Assembly (NCBI GenBank): GCA_029990205.1
Contig: JAPEKQ010000002.1
Span: forward strand, 32,845 to 96,844
Direction: 5' to 3'
DNA length: 64,000 nt
Origin: a bacterium
Lineage (GTDB): Bacteria; Joyebacterota; Joyebacteria; Joyebacterales; Joyebacteraceae
In this document: positions 4,014 to 55,626 of the stretch, piece by piece
Layout: each line of letters starts with the position of its first letter
Numbering within the stretch: the stretch's first letter is position 1
The notes under the pieces: generated by a model
What the model saw: the letters and a program-made list of their open reading frames with translations, nothing else
Database searches by the model: none
Told to the model about the DNA's origin: nothing
Translations under genes and position numbers: made by a program

Positions 4014-4721
4014 TCAGTCGCCTCGCTGAGCGAGGCGCATCAGCATCATCCGGATGACGAGAGTCTGGTCCTCGGCGGGAATGTCGATGACCGCGTCCGC
4101 GAGCGCCCTGAGCGTCGCCGCGTCCGGAACACCGCTCGGCTCGAGTTCGTTCTCCTCCTGGAAGCTCACCAGGGCAAGCACCGCCTCCGCGTCCCACTCC
4201 CCCATCCCGTAGTTCACGTCCAGCCCGAGCGCCGACATCACCGACTTGATGAAGACACGCTCCTCGTACTCCAGCTCCAGCGGGAGCGACGGCGCATCCG
4301 CGATCACGATCTGCGCCGGGTCCTCGACGACGATCTGCGGCTTCCCCTTGTACTCGACGATGGTCCCGGTCACGCAGATGCGGCGGCCGTCGAAGAGCGC
4401 CTCTGGCTCATCCTCGAAGAGCCCCCTCGTCGAACCCCAGATGACGACCGTGAACAGCTGGTCGGGGTACGGACGGCCGAGATTCAGGAAGGTCGGCGTG
4501 CCGCCGGTGCGGCCGAGATACGCAGCGCTGGCGACGGTCCCGCAGACGGTGGCGTCCGCACCCACATGCGCCGCCGCGTCCTCCACCTCGATGACGAGGT
4601 CCCCTGCGACAGCCGTGCACGGCGCGACCGCGCCGACGAAGGTCAGCGAGAGAATCGCCACGACGACGGTCATCACTGAGGCCGCCGAGCCGTTGGCCGG
4701 GTGTGTTCTGTTCCGCTTCAT
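4014..4721 (-). CDS. Hypothetical membrane-anchored protein: OB-fold-like region plus a C-terminal peptidoglycan-binding-like domain
   Basis: N-terminal TM/signal segment (VMTVVVAILSLTFVGAVA). Segment ICVTGTIVEYKGKPQIVVEDPAQIVI. C-terminus ...SGVPDAATLRALADAV is PG_binding_1-like. GGGAGG RBS. Confidence 0.55.
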   Translation of the reverse strand: MKRNRTHPANGSAASVMTVVVAILSLTFVGAVAPCTAVAGDLVIEVEDAAAHVGADATVCGTVASAAYLGRTGGTPTFLNLGRPYPDQLFTVVIWGSTRGLFEDEPEALFDGRRICVTGTIVEYKGKPQIVVEDPAQIVIADAPSLPLELEYEERVFIKSVMSALGLDVNYGMGEWDAEAVLALVSFQEENELEPSGVPDAATLRALADAVIDIPAEDQTLVIRMMLMRLAQRGD

Positions 4722-10380: not shown

Positions 10381-13300
10381 CTAGAACTCCGCTCCGATGG
10401 CGAAGTGAGAGACCGGCTCGCCCGTCGTCTGAAGGTCGGTCGGCCACGCGAGATCGTACCGCAGCACGAAGTAGCCGAACCGCATCCTCGCGCCGATCCC
10501 GTAGCTGGCCTTGATGTCCTGGAACCGCACGGCGTCGGTGCGGGCGACACCGCGGAACTCCTCGTTCCACGCGGCGCCAAGGTCCGCGAACATCACGCCC
10601 CGAAGTCCCCAGATCGACAGCGGGATCGGCGAGGCGATGGTCAGATTGTCGATGAACGGGTAGCGGAGTTCGAGTGTCGCCAGCGCCACGTTGTGCCCGC
10701 TGAACTCGAAATCGTCGTACCCGCGGATCGAGTTGACGCCGCCGATGTAGAACGTCTGCGCGTCCGCCTGCGAACTCCGCGCGTAGACCAGCTTCGTCGC
10801 GAGGCTGTGTCTCGCGCCGATGCGCGTGTAGTGACGCAGATCGGCGATACCCGTCAGGAAGCTGAAATCGCTCCCCATCCCGATCGACTTGGAGACGGAC
10901 AGCGAGGAGCGCCCGCCGCTGATGGGACCGACCGATCCCCACAGCGTCGTGTCGTTGACGAAGCGCAGGCTCGGAAGGAGCAGCGTGCGATCGACCTCCT
11001 CGTCGGTGAGTTCGATCTCGCCTTCCGTGTTCTCCTCGGCGAAGCGCCGCGAGAGCGACAGGCTCCCGACGTCGAACTCGACGCGTGAGAAGTGGCTGAG
11101 CGGATACGTCATGCCGACCGAGACGCCGTAGTTGCGCTCGGTGAAGTACCGCTTCTCGCCCAGATCCTCGCCAAGCCGCGTGCGGTCCGAGTAGTAGTAC
11201 TCGCGGTAGGTGTAGACGGAGAGCGCGTAGTTGATCCGGTTCGCGAGATACTCATAGCGAATGTGCGCGTTCGAGAACTCGAAACTCGAGAAGAAGTCGG
11301 TGGCGACGTAGAAGCGATGGTTGCCCAGGATGTCGCTCACCGCGATCTCGGCTGTGCCGCCGAACCCGTAGGCGGAGCTGTATGAGAACCCGCCGTCGAT
11401 CCAGTCCGGGCTGAACTTGGGCGTGTACCGCTCGACGGTCCCGGCCTGCCGCTCCTCCTCCTCGATACTCGGAGGCAGCTGGCCGGTGGCACGCGAGTAG
11501 GCGGTCCGGGCCTTCCTCACGGCATCGCTCTCGGCGCGCTCGCCGGGCTCATCGCGAGGTCTGGGCGGCCCGCCGCCCAGCCTGAGCGGAGCCGGCTGCG
11601 TCATGGCCGTGTCGACCACGGCGGTCGCGTCGTCATCCGTCGGCGGATCATCGGGCATGGTGACGGTGCCGACGGAGGTGTCATCAATGATCTCGCCGTC
11701 CCGGCCGAACGTCACGACTTCGCTGTGCACGGTCGGCGCGTCAGAGAGGGCGACGCCCCCGTCATCCGCATCGGGACGCTCGACCACCGCGACCCATTCG
11801 TCCTGGTAGTTGTCGAACGGCTCGGGCGCGTCGACGTCCGAGATCGCCGGGAAGCGCTCGCCACCGTTGATGGCGTCCGCGAAGTGCGACAGCGGCGACT
11901 TCACGACGGCCACGTCCCAACCGCCCTCCTCGTACGCGGCGAACGCAAGCCGGTCGCCATCGTGAGACCAGCTCGGCGTCTCCGCGCCGCCGATGAGCGA
12001 TGTGAGCCGCACACACGTTGAGTCGCCGAGGTCCGCCAGGTAGAGATCCGGGGTCCCGAGTCGATCGGAGGAGTAGATGATGTAGCGGCCGTCCGGCGAC
12101 CAGGTGGGCGACTGCTCCCAGCCCGGGCCGCGAACGAGCGGTGTGACGCGTGTGCTCGCAACATCGACCGAGTAGAGGTCGTAGCTGCGATCGAACCCGC
12201 GATTGAGCGGCGAGTCGCGGTCCGACTCGAACGCGATCGACCGGCCGTCGGGCGACCAGGCCGGGTTCCGCTCGTCATCGTAGTCGTCGGTCAGTCGCCT
12301 CAGGCTCTCCCCCATCACGTCCGTGACGTAGAGCTCGGAGGCTCCGTCCCTCGTCCCGATGAACGCGATGTGGTCCCCGTCGGGCGACCAGACTGGCGTG
12401 TAGACGCCGTCAAGGTCGAACGCGAGACTCCGGACGAGCCCGCTCCCGTCGGCTCCGACGATGTGGATCGCGTCACTGCCGCCGGCCTTCGTGCCGAAGC
12501 AGATCATCGTTCCGTCGGGCGACCACGAGAAGCCCACCCGCAGCACGTGCATCTGCTCGAATGCGTCGGTCGTCTCGCCCTTGATGATGCGACCGAGCGT
12601 CGCCCCATCGAGCGTCGAGACGTGGTACACGTCGGCATACCCTGTCCTGTCCGAGAGGAACACCACGGAGTTGCCGTCGGGCGCGATCGAGGGACCGACA
12701 TTGAAGTATGAGTTGTCCTTCCTGTGGTCGGTCAGAAGCTTCGCCTCGTCCTTCGCGCGCTCCAGCCCCGCGATCCCGGGCCAGTAGCGGTTCCGAAGCC
12801 ATCGTTCCCACTCCTGGTTGAGCTCGGCCGTCGACAGCCCGGTCGCCTCGCGGAGCGAGCGCTCGAGGTTCTGCGTTCTCGCCATCACCCGGACGAGTTC
12901 CTTGACCTTCTCCTCGCCGTACCGGTCCGCGATGAAGTTGAGCGCGGACTGTCCTTCCTTGTAGACGAGATACCCGCCGTAAAGATACTCGAGCGGCACG
13001 ACCGCGTCCGCCGTCGTGAGATCGCGCAGGATCATCTCGGCCTGTGTGTCCCAGCCCTGCGAGGCGAACTCAGCCAGCCCCTCCGCGAACCAGAGCGGGA
13101 CCGGGTTGAAGTACGCCTGACGGATGACCGACTCGGCGAGACCGCGGTAGACGATGTCGAACATGAACACGTGCGTCATCTCGTGATGGATGACGTGCCT
13201 GAGTTCGTAGTACGAACCGGTGAACGGGATGACGACGCGGTTCTTGAACAGCTCGGTGAACCCGCCGACCCCCTCGCCTACGTGCGACGAGAGGACGTTG

Positions 13301-13605
13301 GTCTGCTGGAACTCGTTGTGGGAGGCGTAGACGATGATGGGGATCACCGTCGTCAGTTCGTGGCCGAAGAGCTCCTCGAGGTGGTCGTTCGATTCCTCGA
13401 CGATACGGCAGACGGCGTCCGCGACATCCTCCGACCCGTCGTAGTAGTAGACGTCGAAGTGCTCGGTGCGGATGATCTGCCAGTCGAAGTTCTGGTACTG
13501 TATCTTGTTCCTGCCGAACTGGGCGCCCCGGGCCGCGTCCGCGGTGGCGAGGAGGGCGGCCACCGCTCCCAGCAGGACCATGAGTCGTGCGCTTCGCATG
13601 AACAT
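10381..13605 (-). CDS. Large outer-membrane protein: N-terminal HExxH (MA-clan-like) domain, central TolB-like WD40/PD40 beta-propeller repeats, C-terminal Omp85/D15 surface-antigen beta-barrel
   Basis: Signal peptide MFMRSARLMVLLGAVAALLATADA. HVIHHEMTHVF (HExxH). Repeated ...WSPDG(R/D).IAF... motifs (PAWSPDGRSIAFESDR, PTWSPDGRYIIYSSDR, PSWSHDGDRLAF). C-terminus ...GIGARMRFGYFVLRYDLAWPTD...SHFAIGAEF ends in an aromatic residue. Start is ATG 13605 or 13599. Confidence 0.8.
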   Translation of the reverse strand: MFMRSARLMVLLGAVAALLATADAARGAQFGRNKIQYQNFDWQIIRTEHFDVYYYDGSEDVADAVCRIVEESNDHLEELFGHELTTVIPIIVYASHNEFQQTNVLSSHVGEGVGGFTELFKNRVVIPFTGSYYELRHVIHHEMTHVFMFDIVYRGLAESVIRQAYFNPVPLWFAEGLAEFASQGWDTQAEMILRDLTTADAVVPLEYLYGGYLVYKEGQSALNFIADRYGEEKVKELVRVMARTQNLERSLREATGLSTAELNQEWERWLRNRYWPGIAGLERAKDEAKLLTDHRKDNSYFNVGPSIAPDGNSVVFLSDRTGYADVYHVSTLDGATLGRIIKGETTDAFEQMHVLRVGFSWSPDGTMICFGTKAGGSDAIHIVGADGSGLVRSLAFDLDGVYTPVWSPDGDHIAFIGTRDGASELYVTDVMGESLRRLTDDYDDERNPAWSPDGRSIAFESDRDSPLNRGFDRSYDLYSVDVASTRVTPLVRGPGWEQSPTWSPDGRYIIYSSDRLGTPDLYLADLGDSTCVRLTSLIGGAETPSWSHDGDRLAFAAYEEGGWDVAVVKSPLSHFADAINGGERFPAISDVDAPEPFDNYQDEWVAVVERPDADDGGVALSDAPTVHSEVVTFGRDGEIIDDTSVGTVTMPDDPPTDDDATAVVDTAMTQPAPLRLGGGPPRPRDEPGERAESDAVRKARTAYSRATGQLPPSIEEEERQAGTVERYTPKFSPDWIDGGFSYSSAYGFGGTAEIAVSDILGNHRFYVATDFFSSFEFSNAHIRYEYLANRINYALSVYTYREYYYSDRTRLGEDLGEKRYFTERNYGVSVGMTYPLSHFSRVEFDVGSLSLSRRFAEENTEGEIELTDEEVDRTLLLPSLRFVNDTTLWGSVGPISGGRSSLSVSKSIGMGSDFSFLTGIADLRHYTRIGARHSLATKLVYARSSQADAQTFYIGGVNSIRGYDDFEFSGHNVALATLELRYPFIDNLTIASPIPLSIWGLRGVMFADLGAAWNEEFRGVARTDAVRFQDIKASYGIGARMRFGYFVLRYDLAWPTDLQTTGEPVSHFAIGAEF

Positions 13606-13694
13606 AGGTTGTCCCATCCGTGTAGGAACCTGCTCGGTTTTCATTCTAGTCCCGCCCGAGCGGGGTGTCAACCGGACCCGGGCACGTCGGCCTG

Positions 13695-28927: not shown

Positions 28928-29307
28928 GAGCTGCAGCAGACCGTAAGCCGAGTTCTGTCGGAAGGCGAACCTTCCGCGACGACCATTCATCTGGGACGCC
29001 GGTTACCCGACGCCTCAAGCGACCCACCCGGGAGTTCTAGCGAAGCGGGCAGCTTCTCCTCCCCTACTTGGTCTCGCTCCGGACGGGGTTTACCTAGCTG
29101 CCCCCGTCACCGGGGGCACTGGTGGGCTCTTACCCCACCTTTTCACCCTTGCCGGGGAACCGCAAGCGGCACCCTTAGGCGGTCTACCTTTCTGCGGCAC
29201 TTTCCTTAGGATCACTCCCACTGGGCGTTACCCAGCGTCCTGCCCTCTGGAGCTCGGACTTTCCTCGGACGGACACGTCCGTCCGCGGTCGCCTGGCCTA
29301 CTGCATT
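28928..29307 (-). ncRNA. rnpB: RNase P RNA, bacterial type A
   Basis: Minus strand reads ...CGAGGAAAGUCCGAGCUCCAGAGGGCAGG..GGGUAACGCCCAGUGGGAG...AGGAAAGUGCCGCAGAAA...GGUAAGAGCCCACCAGUGCCC...CAGAUGAAUGGUCGUCGC...ACAGAACUCGGCUUACGGUCUGCUGC. P1 helix GCAGUAGGCC/GGUCUGCUGC. Ends are approximate to within 5 nt. Confidence 0.92.
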
Positions 29308-30882: not shown

Positions 30883-30959
30883 TGGTGGGCGATACTGGAT
30901 TCGAACCAGTGACCTCCGGTATGTGAGACCGGCGCTCTAACCAACTGAGCTAATCGCCC
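30883..30959 (-). tRNA. tRNA-Val (anticodon CAC), CCA encoded
   Basis: Minus strand GGGCGATTAGCTCAGTTGGTTAGAGCGCCGGTCTCACATACCGGAGGTCACTGGTTCGAATCCAGTATCGCCCACCA. Cloverleaf is consistent. Anticodon loop CUCACAU. Confidence 0.9.
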
Positions 30960-30971
30960 ATGCTGTTCTCG

Positions 30972-31046
30972 TGGTGGGCCCACTCGGATTCGAACCAAGG
31001 ACCTACGGATTATGAGTCCGCTGCTCTACCGCTGAGCTATGGGCCC
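30972..31046 (-). tRNA. tRNA with CAU anticodon (tRNA-Met elongator, or tRNA-Ile2 read after lysidine modification), CCA encoded
   Basis: GGGCCCATAGCTCAGCGGTAGAGCAGCGGACTCATAATCCGTAGGTCCTTGGTTCGAATCCGAGTGGGCCCACCA. Anticodon loop CUCAUAA. C4:G69 and C5:G68 in the acceptor stem resemble tRNA-Ile2 determinants. It is not an initiator: no 3xGC anticodon stem and no 1:72 mismatch. Confidence 0.88.
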
Positions 31047-37860: not shown

Positions 37861-38823
37861 CTAGTGCCGGTAACGTCTGAAGCCGGAGCACTCGATGAGA
37901 TCGAACTTCCGTCTGGCGGCCTTCTCGACGCCGTCCAACAGAAGGTTCATCCCCAGCGTGTCGCTCGCTATGTGCCCGGCGATCACTACGTTGATGTGGT
38001 TCTTCTCGGCCTGTTCCCTGTTCTTCTCCGAGATGTGCATGCCCACGACCGTCCCGATGTCGGACGTGTTCGCGAGCTTCTCGAAGGCCTTGTGCGAACC
38101 ACCGGTCCCGCCCGTCATATCGACGAGGACCTTGCCGGTCCGCCGCTCCTCGCTGCCGACGAAGACCTTGAGTCCGGCGCCGAGCTTCTCGGCTTCGGCG
38201 TACTCGGGGATATCCCGGAGCACACCGAGCACGTCGCCGACGGTCTCGGCCTTCTTCGCGTCGAACAGCCTCTGAAGATACGTGGCCACACAGTTGTCGG
38301 CCGGTGTGTGGGTACAGATCATCGGGATGTCGAGAAGACGAGCCGCGTCGACGCCCCGCTGGTGGTTGATCGGCATGACGCCCCGCTCGACCTGCTTGAT
38401 GCGGGGACCCATGATGCCCTCGGCGACATTGATCGGGACGCCGTGAGCGTGGAGGATATCGGCCTGCATCGCCATGACACCGCTCAGGTTCGCCTGCGCC
38501 CCGCCCTCGGGATGGTGCGCCCAGATGAGATCGATCTTGCGACCCTTCTCGCGAAGCCGCTCGGTAAGGAGGACCTCGCCGATCTCCATGTCGATCCCCA
38601 TAATGACGCTCTTGACGTCGACGTCGTCGGCGCCGTGGAGGATGCGGGAATCGGAATACGGGCTGGTCAGACGCTCGGTGTCGAACACCTTCTTGTCGTT
38701 GCCCTTGAGACCGTCGTACTTCTTCTTCACGCGCTTGAGTTCCTTGCGAACAACCGCCTTGCCGCGCGGGTCGTACTCGATCCCGACCTTGACTGCCGCC
38801 TCGTAGAGCTTCCTGAGCTTCAT
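37861..38823 (-). CDS. Nif3-like dinuclear metal centre family protein (putative)
   Basis: ...IDLIWAHHPEG... and ...GHIASDTLGMNLLLDG... resemble the NIF3/YqfO metal-binding motifs. Assignment is by motif only. Confidence 0.55.
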   Translation of the reverse strand: MKLRKLYEAAVKVGIEYDPRGKAVVRKELKRVKKKYDGLKGNDKKVFDTERLTSPYSDSRILHGADDVDVKSVIMGIDMEIGEVLLTERLREKGRKIDLIWAHHPEGGAQANLSGVMAMQADILHAHGVPINVAEGIMGPRIKQVERGVMPINHQRGVDAARLLDIPMICTHTPADNCVATYLQRLFDAKKAETVGDVLGVLRDIPEYAEAEKLGAGLKVFVGSEERRTGKVLVDMTGGTGGSHKAFEKLANTSDIGTVVGMHISEKNREQAEKNHINVVIAGHIASDTLGMNLLLDGVEKAARRKFDLIECSGFRRYRH

Positions 38824-52819: not shown

Positions 52820-53347
52820 TTAGAACCTGACCTCGAATCCGACGCGGAAGCCGTCTCCGCGCGCGGCGGGAGATGCGGCGACCGCCGCGTCCAGCCCGCC
52901 CGGGGTGTTGTCATCGAAGCCCGAGAGATGTGCGTCGACGTACGCATCCGTGATGCTGTAGAGCGCGAGGATGGCCGTCCACCAGATCAGTGTCTGTCTT
53001 CTGTCGAAGTGCTCCGAGTATTCCTCGAAATAGTCGTTGTCGCCCGTCTCGTAGTAGTTCCTGAGCGCGTAGCGGGTCCAGCGATCCTCCAGAACGAGCT
53101 GAGCGATCAGCAGGGCCTCCACGCCGCCGATGATGGCGGCCTTGCGCTCGGTCCCGTTGAGAAACTGACCGAGCCCCGGGTAGGCTGCCGACGCGATGAG
53201 AACCCTCGCGCCGCCCGGCCTTGTGGACGCCGCCTCCTGCCCCGTCACCGCCCCTTGCCGCGTGACCGACCCCTGCCCCATCGCGACCGCCGGAACCAGT
53301 ATCGCGACTGCGAGCACGAGCACGAGTGCGGCGGGACCGGTTCTCAT
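52820..53347 (-). CDS. Hypothetical secreted/membrane protein, DUF5683-like (YPGLGQ motif)
   Basis: Signal peptide MRTGPAALVLVLAVAILVPAVAMG, then ...AAYPGLGQFLNG... Stop/start overlaps the upstream gene by 1 nt. Confidence 0.5.
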   Translation of the reverse strand: MRTGPAALVLVLAVAILVPAVAMGQGSVTRQGAVTGQEAASTRPGGARVLIASAAYPGLGQFLNGTERKAAIIGGVEALLIAQLVLEDRWTRYALRNYYETGDNDYFEEYSEHFDRRQTLIWWTAILALYSITDAYVDAHLSGFDDNTPGGLDAAVAASPAARGDGFRVGFEVRF

Positions 53348-54318
53348 CAGATCGCGAGCTCCTTGACGCGCCGGGAGGTGAACGGCTCAACCACGAACTC
53401 CGCGGGCTCGGCGTCACCACCCCAGCAGCGGACGCGGATGCTCTCGCCCTCCTCGGTGTCCGCGTAGCGCGCGACCAGTCGCGAGGACATCTCAAGGTTC
53501 TCCGGGGTCGGTTCGCCCCGGAAGACGCCGACCGGCCCCTTGTGCTCCACGGCCTTGATGAACATCACACCTTCGGACTCGAGTTCAAAGAGCCGCTCGT
53601 TCTCCGCGTGGTTGCGCCCGACGATGAGCTTCGCGGTATCCGTGAGCCGGAACTGCCGCCCCATCGAGATCAGCCGGACATCGACCGATGAGAGCGCCCC
53701 GTGCTTCCTGACATCCTTCAGAGCTCTCGCGAAGTTCTCGTCGGTCAGAAGGCAACCGCCGGCCGGCGAGGCGTACCGTTCGATGCCGAACTGCTCGGCC
53801 AGCTCGATCTGCGGCTTCCGGGTCCGCCCGTGGAGACCGAGGAGCTTCTCCCGGTCGACCCATCCCTCGAGCTCCGGCACCGTCGGCGCCAGGAGCTTCG
53901 CGGACAGCGGCCTGAGCAGGCGCCCCCCGATCCCGGACTCGCGCTCGACGGCGCCGAGTCCGAACCGCATCTGCGACTTCGGGCGCTGACCGACGACCTC
54001 GCCGGTGACGATGAAGGAGGCCCCGAGCTCCTCGAGCTTGCCGGCGGCCGTCTTGACCATCATCGCGTGGCAGTCGATGCACGGGTTCATGTGCTTGCCG
54101 TACCCGTGCTTCGGCGCCTCGATCGTTCGGAAGATCTCCTCGGTGATATCGATGACGACGAGCTCGATACCGAGCTCCTCCGCACCGATCTTCGCTCCTC
54201 CCGCACCGAAGAACGGCGAGACGAAGCTCACGCCTATCACCTCGATGCCCTGTTCCATGATCAGACGGGCAGCGAGCAGGCTGTCGAGCCCACCAGAGAG
54301 AAGCGCCAGGGCCTTCAC
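53347..54318 (-). CDS. PP-loop ATP-pyrophosphatase, MnmA/ThiI-like tRNA thiouridylase paralogue
   Basis: (GTG) VKALALLSGGLDSLLAARL... (SGGxDS PP-loop). ...HMNPCIDCHAMMVKTA... aligns with the MnmA NPDILCNKE catalytic-Cys region. ...RLLRPLSAKLL... is ThiI-like. ...SPAGGCLLTDENF... aligns with the MnmA second catalytic Cys. GGAGG RBS 9 nt upstream of the GTG at 54318. The longer track ORF would run through the tRNA-Sec gene. Confidence 0.75.
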   Translation of the reverse strand: MKALALLSGGLDSLLAARLIMEQGIEVIGVSFVSPFFGAGGAKIGAEELGIELVVIDITEEIFRTIEAPKHGYGKHMNPCIDCHAMMVKTAAGKLEELGASFIVTGEVVGQRPKSQMRFGLGAVERESGIGGRLLRPLSAKLLAPTVPELEGWVDREKLLGLHGRTRKPQIELAEQFGIERYASPAGGCLLTDENFARALKDVRKHGALSSVDVRLISMGRQFRLTDTAKLIVGRNHAENERLFELESEGVMFIKAVEHKGPVGVFRGEPTPENLEMSSRLVARYADTEEGESIRVRCWGGDAEPAEFVVEPFTSRRVKELAI

Positions 54319-54349
54319 TAGTTGGAGCCTCCGAAACGTGAAATGGTTG

Positions 54350-54448
54350 TGGCGGGAATGTGTGGGAATCGAACCCACCCCGGACGGGATTAACCGCCCA
54401 GCATAAGGGTTTGAAGCCCTCGGGGCCCACCAGGACCCATCCATCCCC
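54350..54448 (-). tRNA. selC: tRNA-Sec (selenocysteine tRNA, anticodon UCA), 99 nt with CCA encoded
   Basis: Minus strand GGGGATGG-AT-GGGTCC-TGGT-GGGCCC-C-GAGGG-CTTCAAA-CCCTT-(long variable arm ATGCTGGGCGGTTAATCCCGTCCGG)-GGTGGG-TTCGATT-CCCAC-ACATTCCC-G-CCA. 8-bp acceptor stem with one terminal mismatch, 6-bp D-stem with 4-nt loop, UCA anticodon. Located 135 nt downstream of the Sec-containing selD. Confidence 0.75.
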
Positions 54449-54582
54449 GCATATCGGTGCGTCCGGCGGATGGCCGGACGTGTCCGTCTGCGACCGGGCA
54501 TGTCCGGTCCCGGACCGGACTCTACGAAGCAGTATAACCGACAAGTGCCGCGCGAGCTAGCGCGGGGCGCACGCCCTGCGGG

Positions 54583-55626
54583 CTAGCGCAGGGAGATGGG
54601 GTGCGGTCCCTGGGGTCTGACGCGGCCGATACGCCACCAGCCGGCCTCGTCCACGGCCATCTCCCGCTCGAAGACCGGGAGCGCGTCCTCGGGAAGCGCC
54701 ACCAGGAGTCCGCCAGAGGTCTGCGGATCGAATGTCAGTTCGGTGACCACGGTGTCCGCTGTCTCGATCGAGACGCGAGGCGAGTAGAAGTGCCGGTTGG
54801 TGCCCAGACCGCCCGGGGCGATCCCGTCAGCACAGAGCTCGCGTGCCCCATCCATCAACGGGAGTTCGGCGGCGTCGATCTCGATGGTCACGCCGCTCCC
54901 CTCGGCCATCTCGAGCGCGTGTCCTATCAGACCGAAACCCGTGACGTCGGTCGCCGCATGCGCGCCGGCGGCGATCATCGCGCGCGAAGCCGACCGGTTG
55001 AGCGTCGCCATCTGCTCGGTGAGCGCGCCCACCGTCTCCGCCGGCACCCGCTCGAACTTGATGCCGGTCGCGATCACGCCCGTCCCGAGCGGCTTCGTGA
55101 GGACCATCACATCACCCGGCGTCGCGCCCACGTTCGACACGATGCGATCCGGGTGGATGGTTCCGACGACGGCCATCCCGAACTTGAGTTCCTGATCGCT
55201 CACCGAGTGCCCGCCGATCGTCAGGACCCCGGCCTCGAGCGCCTTCTTCTGTGCGCCGGCGAGAATGTCACCGAGCACGGCGTTGGGAAGATCGCCGTCC
55301 GGGAAGCAGACGATGTTGAGCCCGATGAGCGGCGTGCCGCCCATCGCGTAGACATCGGAGATGGAGTTGGCCGCGGCCACGCGGCCGAAGTCGAACGGAT
55401 CGTCGACAACGGGCGTGAAGAAGTCGAGCGTGAACACCAGCGCGGTGTCGTCGTTAAGACGATACACCCCGGCGTCGTCCGCCGTGCTCGTCGAGACGAG
55501 GACGCGCGGATCCACGATCGGCGCAAGGCCCTTGAGCGCTTCGGCGAGGTCCTCCGGACCCAGCTTGGATGCTCAACCAGAGCAGCGGACCTTCTGGGTC
55601 AGCTTGTAGATCTCTTCACGAGACAC
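54583..55626 (-). CDS. selD: Selenide, water dikinase (selenophosphate synthetase) with an in-frame UGA selenocysteine codon at 55573-55575
   Basis: GTG start at 55626 (AGGAGA RBS overlapping the glmS stop). It reads VSREEIYKLTQKVRCSG-U(TGA)-ASKLGPEDLAEALKGLAPIVDPRVLVSTSTADDAGVYRLNDDTALVFTLDFFTPVVDDPFDFGRVAAANSISDVYAMGG... This aligns with E. coli SelD ...SHGAGCGCKISPKVLETIL...DDAAVY...[30 protein letters not shown]. The ORF track shows only the part downstream of the UGA (54583..55515). Confidence 0.85.

Follow-up and report, generated by a model that had tools for sequence, protein, structure and literature searches.

Proteins that combine a ThiI-like catalytic domain with a DUF814-type domain were defined as the 'ThiI+DUF814' family by Burroughs and Aravind (RNA Biol 2014, PMC4075521). 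Members have neither a THUMP nor a rhodanese domain, keep the PP-loop, a CxxC pair and an internal cysteine, carry GRxRxxQ and TxxE motifs on an active-site loop that is enlarged, and end in a domain with two near-invariant arginines, one before its first strand and one before its first helix, and without the DxxxH motif of NFACT (PMC4075521). Their phyletic pattern is nearly exclusive of that of THUMP-containing ThiI, they are associated with TusA, and on comparative genomics they were predicted to form an alternative 4-thiouridylation pathway where THUMP-ThiI is missing (PMC4075521). He and colleagues reported that ThiI/TtuI enzymes that lack rhodanese and carry a CXXC+C cysteine set bind a [4Fe-4S] cluster through three cysteines, and that the cluster of Methanococcus maripaludis TtuI is needed for 4-thiouridine (s4U) at position 8 (s4U8), proposing that O4 is first adenylated and that a cluster-bound SH then attacks (NAR 2022, PMC9825150). 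Here we describe a gene for a related protein in a 64,000-nucleotide (nt) stretch of bacterial contig JAPEKQ010000002.1 (assembly GCA_029990205.1), hereafter the window, where it stands directly behind selD and the gene for the selenocysteine (Sec) tRNA (tRNA-Sec, selC). The protein is almost certainly a member of the ThiI+DUF814 family, called ThiI+NFACT-R below, and we favor, with some confidence, the reading that it is an iron-sulfur (Fe-S)-dependent tRNA thiouridine synthase, most likely producing s4U, whose link to selD and selC is positional and not functional.

A preliminary description of the locus had placed the protein among MnmA/ThiI-like, cysteine-bearing PP-loop RNA thiolases, and Pfam, a family profile and Foldseek all bear out this class assignment. 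Pfam matches ThiI (PF02568) at amino acids (aa) 2-112 (E=1.6e-8) and NFACT-R_2 (PF18297) at aa 220-319 (E=2e-20; score 73.3 bits, cut-off 26.9), with no match to THUMP or rhodanese, which is the architecture of the ThiI+DUF814 family. The family's published signature motifs are all present and invariant, as seen in our alignment of 18 homologues (A1; 49-83% identity) and in a structure model. Invariant positions in the alignment include the PP-loop reported earlier (S8-GGLDS13), N78-PCIDCH84, T146-x-P-E149, G164-R-x-R-K-x-Q170 (G164, R165, R167, K168 and Q170), P185-AGGCLL191 and the arginines R221, R224 and R235. From the alignment and the predicted secondary structure, R221 (and R224) lie at strand E221-224, and R235 lies ahead of helix H237-249. 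Thousands of homologues have the same Pfam pair (more than 7,800 proteins scored at 90% clustering; 921 clusters at 50% identity with E<=1e-30), and in length and two-domain architecture the protein shows no structural difference from them. What differs is the setting: directly behind tRNA-Sec and selD, with a DUF5683 gene next, in a lineage related to Candidatus Eisenbacteria.

A confident AlphaFold2 model built with the 18 homologues (mean predicted local distance difference test 90.5, predicted template modelling score 0.83) was compared with the PDB by Foldseek. The N-terminal half matched LarE (including its [4Fe-4S] form, 8cnz), ThiI, MnmA and QueC; the ThiI matches included 2c5s at 26% identity and 4kr6 at a root-mean-square deviation of 3.3 A over 207 columns. 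The C-terminal half matched the NFACT-R regions of Streptococcus suis FBPS (5h3w) and of RqcH in ribosome complexes (7aqc, 8s1u), with 5h3w and 7aqc at the top of the list. No solved full-length relative was found among PDB structures by this search. The family profile likewise scored ThiI chains (40.9 bits for 2c5s, and 30.9 bits) above MnmA chains (26.4 and 25.0 bits), with the ThiI-type TGExxGQxxSQ and RPL motifs covered by the alignments to ThiI structures. On these sequence comparisons, the catalytic domain is ThiI-like, with a CxxC that resembles C-type MnmA and archaeal ThiI.

The protein is nonetheless not a canonical ThiI. Bacterial ThiI (Escherichia coli, Bacillus anthracis 2c5s, Thermotoga maritima 4kr6) is the best catalytic-domain match in both sequence and structure at 23-26% identity, but our protein has neither THUMP nor NFLD nor rhodanese, and its CxxC is missing from the bacterial ThiI structures. 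Whereas canonical ThiI and TtuI place NFLD and THUMP N-terminal to the PP-loop, this protein begins at the PP-loop (S8) and has no Pfam THUMP match. It scores 33.9 bits against TIGR00342, the canonical ThiI model, whose cut-off is 264.5.

We consider it unlikely that the protein is instead an analogue of MnmA, that is, a C-type (CxxC+C, Fe-S) enzyme making 2-thiouridine (s2U) at the wobble position U34, with NFACT-R replacing the tRNA-binding domains of MnmA. The two share some features: both have the PP-loop, an NP[CD]xxC motif at an equivalent position and a later cysteine at similar spacing, and MnmA structures are among the Foldseek matches. The motif G-K-x-M-N-P-C-I-D-C lines up position by position with the G-R-T-P-N-P-[DC]-x-x-C of MnmA, and the profile puts GKxMNPCIDCH on GRTPNPDILCN of E. 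coli MnmA (D99/C102) and on NPCVMCN of MnmA 9hln. GidA/MnmG is an upstream neighbor in two of 79 loci, and public pipelines often label homologues MnmA or TrmU. However, the Pfam HUP model of MnmA (tRNA_Me_trans) matches only the 30-residue PP-loop (aa 2-31), and the anticodon-arm-binding middle and C-terminal domains of MnmA are undetected by Pfam, with NFACT-R_2 in their place. ThiI outscores MnmA in Pfam, NCBIfam and PDB searches, TGExxGQxxSQ and RPL being ThiI-type motifs, and the phyletic complementarity reported for the family is with ThiI and not with MnmA (PMC4075521).

NCBIfam equivalog models tell a similar story. The MnmA models reach 16-29 bits where their cut-offs are 237-680 (TIGR00420, 20.1 against 236.95; NF001138, 29.2 against 284), and MnmA and ThiI equivalogs alike fall roughly 10-fold under their cut-offs. 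The best NCBIfam score belongs to a ThiI-like 'hypothetical protein' model (42.5 bits against 251), and all NCBIfam models stay far below their cut-offs. At 323 aa the protein is also shorter than the MnmA (375-380 aa) and ThiI (388-413 aa) chains among the PDB matches. Judged by these comparisons it is neither MnmA nor canonical ThiI, as the preliminary description had said on grounds of length and sequence. That description had further aligned two cysteine segments with the catalytic cysteines of MnmA, and here the outcome was divided: the first segment (NPCIDC) aligns as claimed, whereas the second (GGC, C189) lies outside every hidden Markov model alignment. Going by position and by known sequences, C189 is presumably equivalent to C199 of MnmA or C344 of ThiI.

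A close mechanistic parallel is TtuI/ThiI of M. maripaludis and Pyrococcus furiosus, which has in common with our protein a ThiI-type PP-loop, the CXXC+C set and the absence of rhodanese (PMC9825150). TtuI binds tRNA through NFLD and THUMP domains at its N-terminus; the protein described here has neither, but instead a C-terminal NFACT-R_2 domain, and its active-site loop is longer and carries the family-specific motifs. Since the same invariant CXXC+C triad is present, we infer by analogy that the same chemistry may operate with NFACT-R_2 in place of THUMP. The C-terminal domain would hold the tRNA, replacing the THUMP of canonical ThiI, and the PP-loop domain would spend ATP on adenylating the oxygen of the target uridine. 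C80, C83 and C189 would ligate a [4Fe-4S] cluster, whose free iron would carry a hydrosulfide that displaces AMP to yield thiouridine. The likeliest product would be s4U at position 8.

Gene neighborhoods elsewhere in the family support a thiouridine role. A TudS-type 2-/4-thiouracil desulfidase (PF04463, E ~1e-42 to 1e-46) is encoded directly upstream in six loci (L018, L023, L026, L033, L041 and L048) from Syntrophomonadaceae and Bacillota metagenome-assembled genomes (MAGs). Other neighbors include Rrf2 (IscR-like, three times), Aminotran_5 (IscS-type, twice) and NifU (twice), with no AIRS/SelD among those listed. A study of RudS lends support to an s4U role as well: it describes groups that have an s4U-specific tRNA desulfidase but no THUMP-ThiI, and its authors speculate about a differently built ThiI (PMC11417400). 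The adjacency of TudS to a ThiI+NFACT-R gene is not found in PMC4075521, PMC9825150 or PMC11417400 and is added here.

That the enzyme acts on another substrate also seems unlikely, be it a different place in tRNA (e.g., 2-thiocytidine at 32, s2U54 or s4U9), rRNA or, in the manner of LarE, a nucleotide or cofactor. LarE, QueC and other PP-loop enzymes that do not act on tRNA are among the best structural matches, NFACT-R of RqcH/NEMF acts on the ribosome (the 7aqc and 8s1u matches), and the family's substrate has been assigned by prediction alone. Yet ThiI and MnmA, which thiolate uridines of tRNA, are the nearest in sequence; TudS, a desulfidase of thiouracil or 4-thio-UMP, is a neighbor; and the family shows phyletic complementarity with ThiI (PMC4075521). 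LarE-like cofactor chemistry was rejected as a primary reading because the protein has a predicted RNA-binding domain and is closer in sequence to ThiI and MnmA.

Several observations weigh against a tRNA thiouridine synthase of the s4U type. Our literature search turned up the prediction of 2014 and papers on other matters, but no experimental work on the ThiI+DUF814 family. A crude search for open reading frames (ORFs) with a CPxP motif found no TusA in the window and one in 173 loci (L171); TusA, which is outside the top 25 neighbor families, is an accessory and non-defining feature of ThiI+DUF814. The TudS neighborhood comes from a single lineage (Syntrophomonadaceae/Bacillota), and NPCxxC resembles C-type MnmA more than bacterial ThiI. 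The target position, be it U8, U34 or another, is one that we infer, and the tight linkage to tRNA-Sec throughout the close clade (8/8) could carry functional meaning.

The gene itself is genuine and encodes 323 aa (Table 1). Gene callers picked the same start in public assemblies, where the identical protein is recorded (P0001), and several assemblies hold it, including GCA_029990285.1 (contig JAPEKT010000004.1). The longest ORF, of 384 aa from an ATG at 54501, was rejected as the gene because it reads through tRNA-Sec, because the homologues all begin at the PP-loop and because a ribosome-binding site (GGAGG) precedes the GTG. The placement immediately downstream of tRNA-Sec and selD in the preliminary description holds: tRNA-Sec is called by ARAGORN and matches Rfam RF01852 at 70 bits (gathering score 47), and selD matches TIGR00476 at 374 bits (cut-off 125). 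Codon 18 of selD is an in-frame TGA in the motif CSG-U-ASKLG, also found in L085, L086, L087, L089 and L090, that is, in every clade member checked. Public gene calls shorten SelD to 306-319 aa by placing its start 3' of this TGA. Further upstream of selD, on the same strand, are glmS and glmM; DUF5683 is followed by lepB, hrcA, grpE, dnaK and dnaJ.

Table 1. Coordinates of the thiolase gene, its encoded domains and motifs, and its immediate surroundings in the window.
Feature	Position	Strand	Description
Thiolase gene	53347..54318	-	323 aa; GTG start, TGA stop; ThiI-like PP-loop domain and NFACT-R_2
PP-loop ATP-pyrophosphatase domain, ThiI-like	53674..54318	-	aa 1 to ~215; Pfam, family profile, Foldseek
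SGGLDS (PP-loop)	54280..54297	-	aa 8-13; ATP-binding and adenylation motif; invariant
NPCIDCH	54067..54087	-	aa 78-84; CxxC pair C80/C83, putative Fe-S ligands; invariant
GRTRKPQ	53809..53829	-	aa 164-170; family-specific GRxRxxQ, enlarged active-site loop
PAGGCLL	53746..53766	-	aa 185-191; third invariant cysteine, C189
NFACT-R_2 (DUF814-type)	53362..53661	-	aa 220-319; predicted RNA-binding; invariant R221, R224, R235
DUF5683 gene	52820..53347	-	ATG overlaps thiolase stop by 1 nt (TGATG)
Spacer, tRNA-Sec 3' end to GTG	54319..54349	-	31 nt; contains GGAGG ribosome-binding site
tRNA-Sec	54350..54448	-	Anticodon TCA, CCA encoded; ARAGORN and Rfam RF01852
GGTTATACTGCT, possible -10 box motif	54528..54539	-	Between selD and tRNA-Sec; TATACT at 54531-54536
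selD (selenide, water dikinase)	54583..55626	-	Selenoprotein; TGA Sec codon at 55573-55575

The thiolase is probably co-transcribed with tRNA-Sec. A scan for sigma-70-like promoters and for terminators, with non-canonical promoters outside its reach, found neither in the spacer, nor anything between selD and the thiolase gene. Between selD and tRNA-Sec, where the sequence otherwise diverges, the motif GGTTATACTGCT is kept in four clade members (the window, L085, L086 and L087), and the TATACT within it, uncalled by the consensus scan, is a possible -10 box for a tRNA-Sec/thiolase transcript. The simplest reading is that a transcript would begin 5' of tRNA-Sec and run on into the genes for the thiolase and DUF5683 and into lepB, the tRNA being excised by processing. 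In the window and in L085, the selD/tRNA-Sec intergenic region folds into GC-rich hairpins.

From this gene order the preliminary description had proposed a tRNA wobble-base selenation module, or else a selenium insertase: the thiolase would supply s2U to be turned into 2-selenouridine (se2U), or would draw on a SelD-derived donor to insert selenium directly. To examine the linkage across relatives, we compared three sets of loci, namely the close clade, 80 loci from distinct GTDB species, and 78 metagenome loci together with L091-L093. Searches of genome and metagenome contigs returned, among the matches listed, mostly relatives of 41-53% identity, and the close clade was reached through the contigs that encode its proteins. 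In the 80 GTDB loci, tRNA-Sec was sought with ARAGORN and selD with tblastn (E<=1e-3).

Within the close clade (the window, L085-L090 and L095; 59-100% identity), whose nearest named homologues are Candidatus Eisenbacteria MAGs, tRNA-Sec is directly upstream in 8/8 contexts and selD upstream in 7/8, and the tRNA-to-gene spacer is short in all eight (31-35 nt where an equivalent start is called). This adjacency ends there. Among the matches listed, neither gene was found in the 80 GTDB-species loci (41-53% identity; Syntrophales, Omnitrophota, Clostridium, Geobacterales, Nitrospirota, archaea and others) or in the 78 metagenome loci and L091-L093 (43-52% identity). Restricted by length of flank, tRNA-Sec and selD were absent from all ~154 of the listed distant loci whose upstream flank reaches 300 nt or more, and selD from all ~120 in which it reaches 1.5 kb or more. 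The selD search in the 80 GTDB loci gave a single match, weak and to the AIRS family, 5 kb off in L042.

The order also belongs to a larger block, glmM-glmS-(selD)-tRNA-Sec-thiolase-DUF5683-lepB-hrcA-grpE-dnaK-dnaJ, which recurs in all clade contexts. In L088 (5833-6001), tRNA-Sec comes 38 nt behind glmS, with no selD at the site and the remaining block intact; selD was therefore lost from, or inserted into, a site of this type independently of the tRNA-Sec/thiolase junction, and the selD part of the adjacency is dispensable. The gene for DUF5683, a small protein, directly follows that of the thiolase, which it overlaps or abuts, in L085-L090, L091 (7005-7409), L093 (6963-7577), L095 and L096 (~1308-1625), and this pairing reaches beyond the selenium linkage, into relatives of 50-51% identity without tRNA-Sec and selD. 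tblastn with the DUF5683, lepB and glmS sequences of the window matched the clade only, plus weak DUF5683 matches in L091, L093 and L096.

A part for the enzyme in a selenium module alongside SelD and tRNA-Sec is therefore very improbable in our view. In its favor are the order selD, tRNA-Sec, thiolase, kept in seven of the eight clade contexts, the spacer length, which implies co-transcription, and the speculative possibility that a hydrosulfide-binding Fe-S cluster could in principle bind hydroselenide. Against it, the adjacency is limited to one clade (0 of ~150 loci elsewhere in the family, among the matches listed) and lies inside housekeeping synteny, so that inherited gene order explains the linkage, and L088 retains the junction without selD. 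SelD itself carries a UGA codon and needs Sec, which makes selD and selC necessary for ordinary Sec decoding anyway. The wobble-base proposal is further undercut by the missing tRNA-binding domains of MnmA, and the insertase alternative is unsupported on the same evidence, the family's neighbors elsewhere being sulfur and Fe-S genes. Synthesis of se2U needs SelU/MnmH. The scanned ORFs of the 64-kb window included no gene for selU/mnmH, selA, selB, mnmA or THUMP-thiI.

A narrower version, in which the clade's thiolase was recruited onto tRNA-Sec (e.g., onto a U in the acceptor/D-stem linker) or its Fe-S site takes selenide, has in our estimate only a slight chance of being correct. By manual reading of the tRNA-Sec cloverleaf, the acceptor stem spans 8 positions, the linker is A-U and the D stem has 6 bp, leaving no canonical U8, which argues mildly against tRNA-Sec as a special s4U8 substrate. 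If true, such recruitment would be a lineage-specific link of a ThiI-type enzyme to selenium metabolism.

ORFs of the window were annotated by Pfam and NCBIfam, and other features lie apart from the thiolase locus. A class A bacterial RNase P RNA (Rfam RF00010, 296.5 bits) is at 28929-29304 (-), with tRNA-Val and tRNA-Met nearby at 30883-31046. The ORF at 10381-13671 (-) encodes 1096 aa with Peptidase_MA_2, PD40 beta-propeller repeats and a C-terminal barrel of the Omp85 superfamily, an unusual-looking architecture that suggests an outer-membrane protease. For two ORFs with high GC at third codon positions, at 4014-4721 (-; 235 aa) and 37861-38823 (-; 320 aa), neither Pfam nor NCBIfam gave a match at E<=1e-5.

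The family was already described computationally in 2014, and the gene reported here is an ordinary member of it. The main value of the analysis is that it corrects an attractive guilt-by-association inference: the adjacency to selD and tRNA-Sec is read as inherited synteny and not as a selenouridine operon. The family is very large and occurs in many anaerobes and candidate phyla, and, twelve years on from the prediction, our search brought up no experimental test of it. The link to TudS and the CXXC+C match give it a concrete, testable mechanism, and the family may explain s4U synthesis in organisms that have RudS but lack THUMP-ThiI.

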